Below are positions 7,413 to 29,847 of a DNA stretch of 53,553 nucleotides, piece after piece. The DNA is from Patescibacteria group bacterium (GTDB lineage: Bacteria; Patescibacteriota; Minisyncoccia; Phycocordibacterales; UBA2100). Both the position numbers and the translations under genes were made by a program. Under the pieces are notes generated by a model. The model was not told where the DNA came from. It ran no database searches and worked only from the letters and a program-made list of their open reading frames with translations. The stretch is from assembly GCA_021731295.1 (NCBI GenBank), contig JAKFXQ010000024.1:1-53553 (forward strand), read 5' to 3'. The stretch's first letter is position 1, and each line of letters starts with the position of its first letter.

Positions 7413-7892
7413 CTATCCACGTCGTGCCGCCTCAATCGCAGCGACGTCAATTTTTCCCATCGTCATCATCACGTCAAATGCGCGTTTGGCTTCGTCACCT
7501 CCGGCCGCGAGCGCTTCAATGAGAACGCGCGGTGTAATCTGCCAGTTCACTCCCCACTTGTCCTTGCACCAACCGCACTGGCTTTCAGCTCCGCCGTTCC
7601 CCACAATCGCGTTCCAGTACTTATCAGTTTCTGCTTGGTCGTCCGTCGCTATCTGAAATGAGAACGCCTCGGTCTGCTTGAATGCAGGACCTCCGTTGAG
7701 ACCGATGCACGGTATTCCGCACACGGTGAACTCGACAACGATGACGTCTCCTGCCTTGCCGTCGGGAAAATCAGACGGGGCTTTCTGAACGCTCGTTACC
7801 GCACTGTCTGGGAACGTGGCGGCATAAAACTCCGCCGCAGCCTGCGCGTCCTTATCGAACCAGATACAAATGGTGTTTTTTGGGATGGTCAT
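7413..7892 (-). CDS. VOC/PhnB family protein
   Basis: ICIWFD..A.EFY...FPDS, LNGGP.F, DQAETDKYWNA, CGWCKDKWGVNWQITP. Confidence 0.93.
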   Translation of the reverse strand: MTIPKNTICIWFDKDAQAAAEFYAATFPDSAVTSVQKAPSDFPDGKAGDVIVVEFTVCGIPCIGLNGGPAFKQTEAFSFQIATDDQAETDKYWNAIVGNGGAESQCGWCKDKWGVNWQITPRVLIEALAAGGDEAKRAFDVMMTMGKIDVAAIEAARRG

Positions 7893-9664: not shown

Positions 9665-11123
<1,459 letters not shown>

Positions 11124-25727: not shown

Positions 25728-25838
25728 TGTGTTGGCGCCTAGCTACTCTCGCCTTGCGACTACCATCGCCTCAACTGGGCTTAACTGCCGTGTTCGGAAA
25801 GAGAACGGGTGTACCCCCAGCGACAAAGCACCAACACA
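25728..25838 (-). rRNA. rrf: 5S rRNA
   Basis: ACACCCGTTCTCTTTCCGAACACGGCAGTTAAG, GATGGTAGT; terminal helix TGTGTTGG/CCAACACA. Confidence 0.95.
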
Positions 25839-26098
25839 CACGATTCAATAAATGTGAATACGATTGAAATGAACTTCGGCCATTGGCAACCGAAGAACGA
25901 CACGAATTAGAATACTCAGGAAAACACTCACGCGACTCCCACAATCCCAGGTCACCCGTAGCTGCGCTACGGCCTACACCTTAGGAAGTTCTGTCGATTC
26001 ATTAGTACACCTCGGCTGAGTGCATTACTGCACGTGCACCTGGTGCCTATCAACGTGGTCATCTCCCACGAATCTCAACGATTCCTTATCTTGGAGTC

Positions 26099-26131
<33 letters not shown>

Positions 26132-26298
26132 AATCCCGACATAGCTACGGGGCGGTGCTCCTGGCGGAACAGCCCCCAGACCAGCGGTCAGTTCATTCCG
26201 GTCCTCTCGTACTAGGAACGAATCTCCTCAAGAATCAACGCCTACAGCAGATTAAGACCAACCTGTCTCACGACGGTTTGAACCCAGCTCACGTACCT

Positions 26299-26332
<34 letters not shown>

Positions 26333-26606
26333 TCTCCAGCCCCGGGATGAGATGAGCCGACATCGAGGTGCCGAACATTGTCGTCGATTTGGACTCTTAG
26401 ACAATACCAGCCTGTTATCCCCAGAGTAACTTTTATCCGTTAATCTTCGGCCGCATCTAATGCGGACCGTCGGTTCACTTTGCTCAGCTTTCGCTCCTGC
26501 TCGGGATGTACCCCTTGCAGTCAAGCCACCTTTTGCCAATGCACTATCGGCACGGTTTCCATTCGCGCCTAGGTGACCATAATAGGCTCCTCCGTTACTT
26601 TTTAGG

Positions 26607-26901
26607 CACTATGTTACGCGCACACACTGTGCGGGTGCATGTATTTCTACTGCACTCTCTGCATCGCTGCAGAGGTCGGACTATATCATCGTCGCGACTG
26701 CATTTACTCAGTCGGACGGTCAGCGTGTAGTCTCTGAGGGATTTCATGTGAATGAAACTTCCCTGCTGATTGTCTGACGACATAACGGATTCGTCAGGTG
26801 TTCCAGCATATAGCTAACTTTGCTTGCCGCGATTACTCACGGCAGTCCCCCTTTTATTTTGTACACATCCCCGGATAAGAGAATGTCTTAGGCGCTACTT
26901 A
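26607..26901 (-). mobile_element. Group I intron, no ORF, in 23S after E. coli position 2262 (295 nt)
   Basis: Exon U before and terminal G; P AUGCUGGAA, Q AAUCAGCAGG, R UCAGAGACUACA, S AUGAUAUAGUCC; P3 GUUAGC/GCUGAC; IGS AGGGGGAC pairs with ligated GUCCU|CCU through a U.G wobble. Confidence 0.93.
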
Positions 26902-27231
26902 AGGACAGCGCCCCACCGAAACTGCCCACCAGGTACGGTCTCTCTAGAGGTTTATCTCAAGAGGTTAGAAGATACAATTTCTAAGAGTGGTGTTGCATTG
27001 GCGACTCCACGAGAGCCAGAGCCCTCGCTTCAAAGTCTCCCACTTACGCTACGCGGAAAAATCGTATCCCCAATACCAAGTTGCAGTAAAGCTTCTGGGG
27101 TCTTTTCGTCTAGCTGCAGGAAGGCGGCATCTTCACCGCCCTTGTATTTTCACCGGGCAAATGCTCGAGACAGTTCCCAAGTCGTTATACCATTCGTGCG
27201 CGTCTGAACTTACCAGACAAGGAATTTCGCT

Positions 27232-27409
27232 CGGGTTTCCTTAAACCAGGACCATTTCTTCATCCACCGAGGTGGAGCATGACGTATGGCCTCTCATCTG
27301 AGTCATGTTGTTCTAGGACCGTGGTACGCGTTACCGAGTACCGAGGTAGCTTCGCACTTCACTCATATAATCGTCCTAGTCCTTCCGCGCCCCATTGCTG
27401 AGACGCAGA
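27232..27409 (-). mobile_element. Miniature group I-like intron in 23S after E. coli position 1931 (178 nt), apparently lacking P4-P6
   Basis: Removal restores CCUAAGGU|AGCGAAAUUCC; terminal G; P7 GAGGCCA/UGGUCC, P3 CAUGAC/GUCAUG, P8, J8/7 AAGAAA, P9. Confidence 0.85.
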
Positions 27410-28849
27410 ACCTTAGGACGATTATAGTTATCGCCGACATTGACCGGGGCTTATATAGCGCCAGCAATATGCATTGCTGCATAAGACCGACCATACTTGA
27501 CCTTCCGGCATTGGTCAGGCATCACCCCCTATACATCCTCTTTCGAGTTCGCAGGGAGCTGTGTTTTTGGTAAACAGTCGCTTGGGAATAATTATCTGCG
27601 ACCACTCAAATAAATGAGTGGCTGGGCTTATTGCGAACGTACGCCCGCTTTCTTGCCGAGTTCCTTGAGCATCTCTCACCCGTTCGCCTTGGTCTACTCG
27701 ACCTGAACACCTGTGTCGGTTTGCGGTACGGTTCATCTAGTGTTGAAGCTTAGAAGCTTTTCTAGGAAGCGCGCTCATGTGGATTCTCTTCGACGAATCT
27801 CCGATTCTCGCCCGTACTCGGAGTAATGCTGCCCGGATTTGCCTAGGCTGCCTCCCTATACGATCGACGTAAATCCTTAATACGCCCACACTACTGCACT
27901 CCGTCACTCCATCGCACACTAAACAAGTCACGGAATATTAACCGTGAATCCATCATCTGCGGCTGTCGCCATCGACTTAGGACCGACTAACCCTTCGTTG
28001 ATCTCCATTGCGAAGGAAACCTTGTTCTTTCGGCGCCCCGGAGTCTCACCGGGGTTGCGGTTACTCGTGCCAACATTATCACTTCCCGTCGCTCCACTAT
28101 GGGTCGCCCCTTTAGCTTCATCGCAACGAGAACGCTCTCCTACCACGTCATCTATCCGAAGACAGATGACATCCGCAGTTTCGGTACTACACTTAGCCCC
28201 GATCATTTGTGGCGCAGAATCTCTGAGTGAGTGAGCTGTTACGCTTTCTTTGAATGATGGCTGCTTCTAAGCCAACATCCTCACTGTCTGTGAAATTCCA
28301 CCTCCTCGCTTGCACTTAGTGTAGATTTAGGGACCTTAACTGGCGATCTGGGCTGTTTCCCTTTTGACGTGTGGAGCTTCGCCCCCACCGTCTAACTGCC
28401 GTATTCTTGACCTCTGGTATTCGGAGTTTGATAGGTTCAGTGGCCTTGCGGCCGATCTAAACCTTCCAGTGCTCTACCCCCAGAGGGAACATACGACGCC
28501 AGCCCGAAAGCTGTTTCGGAGAGAACCAGCTATTACCAGGTTCGATAAGCTTTTCACTCCAACCCACAAGTCATCCCAAGATTTTGCACTATCTACGGGT
28601 TCGGCCCTCCCGCCGTACTTCTACGACGTTCAGCCTGCTCATGGGTAGCTCACCTGGCTTCGGGTCTAATACGTACTACTAGTCGCGCTATTCACACTCG
28701 CTTTCGCTGCGGCTCCATCCGAAAAGACTTAGCCATGCAGTACGCATTAACTCGTTGGCTCATTCTTCAATAGGCACGCCGTCGAGGACTTGCGCCCTCT
28801 CCGACTCCTTGTAGACATATGGTTTCAGGTCTATTTCACTCCCCTTACC

Positions 28850-28892
<43 letters not shown>

Positions 28893-29847
28893 ATCTCTAA
28901 AAGTATGTAGCCTTACCAGTTAGTTCTGGCGAATTCACCCGAGCTATTCGTGTCTCGAGTTACTCAAGAACTACAGCCATAGAGATGCATCGTTTTCGGA
29001 TACGGGGCTATTACCCGCTGTGGCCCGGCTTCCCAACCGGTTCTCCTAACTACGCATTTTGTAACTCTACGCCCTTACGGGCACGCTGTAGCCTTATGAC
29101 CCCCATCCCCAAAATCATCCCGCGACTTGCGTCGCGTTCTGATTTTGTGGCTGAGTTTGGGCTCCTCCCTTTTCGCTCGCCGCTACTAAGGGAATAACTA
29201 TTGTTCTCTTTTCCTCTTGGTACTGAGATGTTTCACTTCCCGAGGTGCACTCTCATTACTTTTTAGGGTTATGAGTCATACAGGTTCACTGTACGGGGTT
29301 ACCCCATTCGGAAATCTCCGGATCGAAGGTTGCTGGGCACCTCCCCGAAGCGTATCGCCGCCATGCTGCGTCCTTCATCGCCTTTTAGAGTCTAGGCATC
29401 CACCATACGCCCTTACTCAGAACTCCTGCGGCGCTAGGCCGTATCGCACCTTTCGGTGTGACCAGGGATTCTGAGAACCGCGTTTTTGTGTCTTGTATCC
29501 AACACCGCGTCAAACCGCCTATCTGAAAGATAAGTGGGTGGACCGAATCTGACTGTTGCCAGACTCGGTCCACGGGTCAAGCCGTACGCGAAACATACCT
29601 CGGCTTGACGCGGTGTTGGAATTTTTTCCTGCATCTCACGAGGCAAGACGGCCTCATGAGAAGTAATCCCTTCGGCCTCTCGGCCGACGGGTTTTTGATT
29701 CTTTTTCGTGTCGTTCTTCAGTTGTCAATGAACGTCACGCAGGGTCAAGAAAAAAGCCGCTTGGGAGCGGCGCGTTCTGCACAGACAAATGTCTAGGCTA
29801 ATCGCGCCACGTTCCGTACTGCTTTCCGAACACCATACGTAGGCCGG

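Follow-up and report, generated by a model that had tools for sequence, protein, structure and literature searches.

A class of group I-like insertions without the P4-P6 domain at position 1931 of 23S rRNA genes, candidates for a minimal intron

P4-P6 is regarded as a half of the group I core that cannot be spared, and a conserved, covarying natural class lacking it would matter. Can a group I intron do without this domain? This question is raised by a 178-nucleotide (nt) insert in the window, i.e. the whole stretch of 53,553 nt of contig JAKFXQ010000024.1 (assembly GCA_021731295.1) from a Patescibacteria group bacterium. The insert (27232-27409, minus strand) interrupts the 23S rRNA gene (25983-29426, minus strand), the sole 23S copy of the host genome (G000), between GGU and AGCG. 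A first-pass annotation, made from the letters of the window, had read it as a group I-like intron at site 1931 that lacks the entire P4-P6 domain. Here, we describe seven such inserts of 178-214 nt, hereafter minis, from at least three host lineages, all of which parse into the same parts. On the evidence of these sequences, we consider it rather probable that they are natural derivatives of L1931 introns that lost P4-P6, keep all the parts that touch the substrates and the guanosine, and splice by the group I route.

The boundaries of the insert were set by the gene itself. Excision of 27232-27409 restores CGUCCUAAGGU joined to AGCGAAAUUCC on the minus strand (with a longer left flank, CCUAAGGU joined to AGCGAAAUUCC), and GGUAGCG is restored by this boundary choice only. 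The Rfam LSU alignment agrees, with 181 nt inserted after GUCCUA and ahead of G..AGCGAAAUUCC. The last base of the 5' exon is U (27410) and that of the insert is G (27232), as the canonical end rule of group I introns has it, so that the 178-nt insert with its U-ended exon and G-ended intron, as first annotated, was upheld. The fold of the insert is more stable than those of its shuffled versions (z = -3.1). The site number, 1931, we take to be that of Escherichia coli numbering, which is consistent with the use of L1931 in published text. L1931 or position 1931 is named as an intron site in PMC1995217 and PMC11270868.

The 3' part of the insert could be read directly from the strand as a series of group I elements, as follows (intron position p corresponds to window position 27410-p).

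27302-27307, minus strand: 5' strand of P3, CAUGAC (intron nt 103-108); three of the six P3 pairs are changed on both sides among the minis.
27294-27301, minus strand: linker UCAGAUGA, 8 nt standing where J3/4-P4-P5-P6-J6/7 belongs.
27287-27293, minus strand: 5' strand of P7, G-A(bulge)-GGCCA (nt 117-123), the presumed guanosine site, paired with UGGUCC.
27278-27286, minus strand: J7/3 UAC and 3' strand of P3, GUCAUG (nt 127-132).
27263-27276, minus strand: P8 hairpin UCCAC-CUCG-GUGGA; pairing is kept while length and sequence vary among the minis.
27249-27262, minus strand: J8/7 UGAAGAAA and 3' strand of P7, UGGUCC (nt 156-161).
27232-27247, minus strand: P9 hairpin GGUUU/AAACC with loop AAGGAA, then the terminal G (27232); the P9 pairs covary.

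All seven minis possess the P3-P7 pseudoknot of group I introns, with a bulged base beside a G-C pair, together with P8 and P9. They all lack P4-P5-P6 with J3/4, J4/5 and J6/7, P3 and P7 being separated by 5-8 nt, i.e. 5 nt in four minis (UCCAA or UACAA) and 8 nt in three (UCAGAUGA or UCACAAGA). The earlier description of P3, P7 with its bulged A, P8, J8/7 and P9 was confirmed both on the strand and by covariation across the seven minis, and the 8 nt given at 27294-27301 in place of P4-P6 was exact. It had also given the P7-to-P8 spacing as 9 nt and as identical to that of the neighbouring canonical intron; the identity holds, but the count is 10 nt (UAC + GUCAUG + C). The loop of P9, AAGGAA, is complementary to UUCCUU of the 3' exon (27219-27224), which is invariant. 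We also considered a cryptic P4-P6, as UAUAUG in the 5' region resembles J3/4-P4; this candidate was rejected, since it sits within the exon guide described below.

The other minis were retrieved by two kinds of scan. A pattern composed of exon, gap, GGACTAGGAC, gap and exon was run on a species-genome and a metagenome collection. The former yielded one further small insert, L005 (185 nt), in a Saccharibacteria metagenome-assembled genome (G220), and the latter yielded L006 (178 nt), L007 (187 nt) and L008 (188 nt). In a pattern scan over the phylum, three of 401 genomes matched, namely G000, G220 and G399, whose match begins AGGTGTAC. R1, a covariance model of the mini 3' core, gave the minis 55.8-93.6 bits, against about 30 bits for the 3' parts of full-length introns. 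Among 26 genomes of the order of G220 (the class scan around G220 covered the same 26), R1 revealed the mini L014 (189 nt) in G083, a single-contig genome whose one 23S gene carries it; G083 was in the sample of the phylum pattern scan, which passed it over on account of its guide, CUGGG. In the genus of the window (116 genomes including G000), R1 found one further mini, L020 (214 nt; G487), and none turned up in a further 150 genomes of the class to which the window belongs. Beyond these, 113 viral-contig stretches carry the P7-P3'-P8-J8/7-P7' signature with UAC as J7/3; no mini was present among the 80 of these loci scanned with R1 (best score 35.8 bits), and the 113 stretches are presumably common group I introns of phages. 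As they carry UAC without the mini architecture, this J7/3 is not special to minis. Given the yields across the genus, the class and the viral loci, the mini class is rare and scattered.

The pairing of the core was then assessed across the seven minis. In P3, P7, P8 and P9, 94.4 % of the cells were standard pairs, against at most 42.9 % with slid partners, and 8 of the 18 pairs (20 cells) were changed on both sides, against at most two such pairs in the slid controls. Pairing reached 95.2 % in P3 and 100 % in P7, where a compensatory change (C-G to U-A) is seen at one position. The alignment of the seven minis was fitted to a model holding P3, P8 and P9 and favours these three helices, P7 being outside the model; a five-sequence MAFFT alignment gave the same pairing picture. 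P2, whose loop is of the GNRA type in all 11 introns compared (the minis and four full-length relatives), shows several pair types at every stem position. Between the window and L006, whose 23S is 94.9 % identical, three double compensatory changes are found in P2, and no difference in P3, the linker, P7, J8/7 or P9. The first-pass annotation had put forward a minimal group I subclass without P4-P6 at 1931 and had named P3/P7 covariation in homologues as one way to check it. Both helices covary and P4-P6 is absent from every mini, so that the subclass now counts seven members with covarying core helices. As judged from this comparison, the covariation arose after the deletion of P4-P6 and the structure appears to be under selection. 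The phylogenetic tree sets the minis to one side of a branch supported by only 52/17, too little to show or to reject a single origin.

The descent of the minis is suggested by their full-length kin. BLAST of the 178 nt against 61 related genomes returned just 19-25-nt matches in three genomes, all of them to full-length L1931 introns in 23S; counting two more from a later scan, the genus of the window has four distinct introns of this kind (691, 773, 582 and 709 nt). Their common order is a 5' hairpin, AGGACU(A/G)GGAC, a variable stretch, a 7-nt guide, a GNRA-capped hairpin, GUCC and P3; after P3 come UAUAU and P4-P5-P6 with several hundred nt inside, then P7, P3', P8, J8/7, P7' and P9. The insert of the window aligns to both flanks of this arrangement, the block of UAUAU and P4-P6 being missing. 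We interpret it as a deletion derivative of L1931 group I introns, minus J3/4, P4, P5, P6 and the sequence carried by P6. The suggestion that a 5' domain replaces P4-P6 did not hold, as the hairpin, exon guide, internal guide and P2 stand in the same order in the four kin that bear P4-P6; the 5' domain is inherited and is no new substitute.

This kinship also bears on recognition by Rfam. Intron_gpI (RF00028) gave no match on the insert at E<=10 (351-nt search), and the coordinates of the minis were absent from the RF00028 matches at E<=0.001 in four host genomes, i.e. below the gathering threshold. However, this criterion is a weak test, since a full-length relative with extra P6 sequence also reaches just 20.9 bits. 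That score was obtained for L004, whose 3' part was aligned by Rfam to the P7/P3'/P8/J8/7 consensus; it is low because sequence in P6 splits the match. In the alignment of L004, the P7 5' strand corresponds to the Rfam consensus AGACUA. Two further differences between minis and kin were recorded. The terminal G is found in 7/7 minis against 2/4 full-length kin; by their exon boundaries, the full-length introns L002 (G036) and L021 (G534) end in U and C, respectively. As a separate observation, base 7 of J8/7 (27255-27262 in the window) is U in the four kin and varies among A, C and U in the minis, the variants of which read UGAAGAAA, UUAAGAAA, UGAAGACA and UGAAGAUA; this variation may reflect a constraint relaxed after the loss of P4.

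How the minis would find their splice sites was examined in the 5' part of the insert, which comprises the following elements.

27384-27409, minus strand: 5' hairpin abutting the splice site, with a U1-A26 pair (nt 1-26); it folds in 7/7 minis despite sequence differences.
27366-27378, minus strand: extended guide UAGGACGAUUAUA (intron nt 32-44), complementary to positions -5 to -17 of the 5' exon.
27414-27426, minus strand: positions -17 to -5 of the 5' exon, target of the extended guide by complementarity.
27344-27350, minus strand: internal guide sequence GCUACCU; ACCU pairs with AGGU of the exon (P1) and GCU with AGC of the 3' exon (P10).
27323-27342, minus strand: P2 hairpin (intron nt 68-87), its GUAA loop being the GNRA loop of this intron.
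27313-27319, minus strand: GUCCUAG (nt 91-97), a copy of the exon motif GUCCUA that could take the place of the exon in pairing with the guide.

The extended guide offers 13-14 bp of complementarity without a break in 8 of the 11 introns (seven minis and four full-length) and covaries with the host, exon AUCG facing guide CGAU in the window's genus and exon ACGG facing guide CUGU in Saccharibacteria-type hosts. Directly 5' of P2, an internal guide complementary to AGGU/AGC (the slash marking the exon junction) reads GCUAC[CU]U in all the minis and G[CU]UGCCU in the four kin; it forms P1 and P10 in every mini, the exons being invariant. The two groups differ at the base opposite U-1, which is A in 7/7 minis (a U-A pair) and G in 4/4 full-length kin (the usual U.G wobble). 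The splice-site wobble of canonical group I introns is consequently missing from every mini. This wobble is read by J4/5 of P4-P6, which makes the joint loss of the wobble and of P4-P6 coherent. Downstream of P2, GUCC is retained in 7/7 minis; as the exon is invariant, no covariation arises there. From its sequence, GUCCUA(G) could occupy the guide when the exon is absent.

Taken together, these parts would allow the following course of splicing. The 5' exon would be held by a 13-bp guide helix (-17 to -5) and by a 4-bp P1 with the internal guide, and the guanosine pocket would be built by the P3-P7 pseudoknot with P8 and P9. A free guanosine would attack after U1931; the terminal G would subsequently enter the pocket, P10 (AGC with GCU) would align the 3' exon, and the exons would be joined. 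In the absence of J4/5, a G.U wobble at the splice site would have no receptor, and a Watson-Crick U-A pair would take its place in the minis.

In favour of such a course, three features that serve only splicing are present in 7/7 minis: the terminal G, the 7-nt guide to AGGU/AGC and the bulged A beside a G-C pair in P7. Indirect support for removal comes from the sole-copy 23S genes of the window's host and of the single-contig G083, both of which carry a mini. The statement of the first-pass annotation that an unspliced insert at 1931 should be poorly tolerated is an inference, beside which stands the Simkania intron mentioned below. Several points weigh on the other side. The sample is small, seven sequences from few lineages, and the link between the guide A and the loss of P4-P6 may be a single event, since one mini origin is favoured, albeit weakly (52/17). 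P1 of the window is just 4 bp and P10 just 3 bp. Efficient catalysis normally needs both P4-P6 and the splice-site wobble. Four sequencing runs (three RNA, one probably DNA) were mapped on 26950-27750, and none covers 27247-27408; among public sequencing runs, none matched as many as half of the sampled words. All four runs contain contigs joining 27231 to 27410. As this join is also present in the probable DNA run, it is uninformative on splicing, and it indicates that intron-less alleles exist. Finally, lichen group I introns with lost core parts do not self-splice in vitro (PMC8527467). [quoted passage not shown] Splicing of the minis is probably slow or aided by some factor. The conserved mini may, by its sequence, be a naturally minimal ribozyme; that the minis are self-sufficient ribozymes is nonetheless a tentative proposal, which we hold to be rather doubtful.

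The alternative that survives best keeps the group I chemistry and has the mini depend on a host protein or on a P4-P6-like RNA in trans, e.g. another intron; we regard it as possible, if clearly less probable than the reading preferred here. It would accommodate the slowness of the P4-P6-less engineered ribozyme (PMC2879505) and the degenerate lichen introns, which are removed in vivo without self-splicing (PMC8527467). At least one other group I-like match is held by each of the four genome-resolved hosts, which makes help in trans possible. Against it, the 23S genes of L006 and L008 contain no Rfam group I match, and L006 carries its mini without the 295-nt intron of the window. The first-pass annotation had invoked help from this neighbouring intron or from a protein; the former is weakened as a general explanation by these two genes, and an RNA or protein encoded elsewhere is still a possible helper. 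As to candidates for such a helper, LAGLIDADG_1, _2 and _3 were found in G083 and G220 but not in G000 or G487, and one exact, narrow pattern for a stand-alone P4-P5, run on four host genomes, matched just the neighbouring intron of the window.

Alternatively, the insert could be a dead remnant that persists as a folded expansion of the mature 23S rRNA, its helices being conserved just for compactness. An unspliced L1931 intron is reportedly present in Simkania. The loss of the splice-site wobble from every mini and the escape of the insert from Rfam recognition would both fit. This view, however, leaves the terminal G and the guide to both exons, each found in 7/7 minis, unexplained. Moreover, the pairing observed between the 13-bp guide and the exon would, if never released, tie up the helix-69 strand and compete with its folding. 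We consider a dead remnant improbable. Excision by RNases without ligation, as for an intervening sequence (IVS) that leaves a fragmented 23S rRNA, is less probable still and would surprise us. Bacteria with 23S rRNA fragmented at other sites are known (PMC11270868), but the ends of the insert form no joint stem of the kind expected of an RNase III-type IVS, each folding into its own local hairpin, and 1931 is a group I site that is not among the IVS sites named in the available part of that source. An assembly deletion of a full-length intron has next to no likelihood, as nothing was found in its favour and it is contradicted by seven separate assemblies with the same architecture and differing sequence.

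Other introns and rRNA genes were met in the course of the analysis. The canonical intron neighbouring the mini in the window spans 26607-26901 (295 nt, minus strand; Rfam group I match at 26657-26891, 64 bits); as the 94.9 % identical 23S of L006 is without it, this intron is a presence/absence polymorphism between close relatives. In L005 (about 7581-7603) and L014, a second, canonical group I intron begins about 20 nt downstream of the mini, which leaves a very short exon between two introns in these Saccharibacteria-type loci. R1 matches of 26-31 bits (L015-L019, in G284, G369, G356, G220 and G083) correspond to group I introns beside the 3' end of 16S, a placement judged by flanking sequence, and coding-like sequence lies upstream of the match in G356 and G083. 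The window also holds 16S (9665-11123) and 5S (25730-25835) genes; the rRNA genes are unlinked, 16S being about 15 kb away from the 23S-5S pair.

If the minis were self-sufficient, no natural intron of the group I type before them would have been shown to function in vivo on P3-P9 and P1-P2 alone. A long exon guide and a U-A splice-site pair would then stand in for the P4-P6 scaffold and the wobble receptor, and the minis would provide a natural example for the idea of P3-P7 as an ancestral catalytic unit. Located in the sole 23S gene of their hosts, they offer a ready test of the minimal RNA for such chemistry in cells, and they could reveal how a 5' splice site is chosen without a wobble receptor. 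For engineering, a mini of 178 nt would offer a splicing module of small size.

We finally compared the minis with known systems. Known L1931 introns of bacterial and organellar 23S rRNA with LAGLIDADG endonuclease genes (Simkania, Thermotoga, Synechococcus) measure 654-700 nt (PMC1995217) and share the insertion site of the minis (PMC1995217, PMC11270868). The full-length kin from the Candidate Phyla Radiation (CPR) share with the minis the 5' hairpin, exon guide, internal guide, P2, P3, P7, P8 and P9, but are 582-773 nt long and contain P4-P6, whereas the minis (178-214 nt) are without P4-P6 and its carried sequence and have A for G opposite U-1. In a survey of CPR bacteria, Rfam assigned 45 % (433/968) of the 23S insertions to group I, and the rest were unclassified (PMC11270868); the mini class would account for part of the unclassified rRNA insertions. 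P4-P6 is unmentioned in the available text of that survey, and short 1931 insertions may be tabulated in its supplements, which give insertion lengths per site. A literature search, which left subscription journals mostly outside, brought up no bacterial group I intron described as lacking P4-P6, nor any intron keeping P3-P9 minus P4-P6 alone. The group I ribozymes engineered without P4-P6 (Ikawa, Shiraishi, Inoue 2000, as cited in PMC2879505) are laboratory constructs of the td intron, whereas the minis are natural, lie within an essential gene and have long exon guides. Natural group I derivatives with core parts lost are not unheard of, as illustrated by small subunit (SSU) introns of Phialophora (63-75 nt), which keep P1, P7 and P10 and pair with the 3' exon, and one of which reportedly splices in vitro (PMC3160393). 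The Phialophora and lichen introns resemble the minis in this respect, but they belong to eukaryotic nuclei, and the parts that they lost are different ones. The Phialophora introns have neither P3 nor P8 nor the remaining core and keep G.U at the splice site, whereas in the minis the whole of P3-P9 is kept and P4-P6 alone is missing. By its sequence, the mini appears to be group I-like in its working while lacking both P4-P6 and the splice-site wobble, two features by which group I introns are defined.
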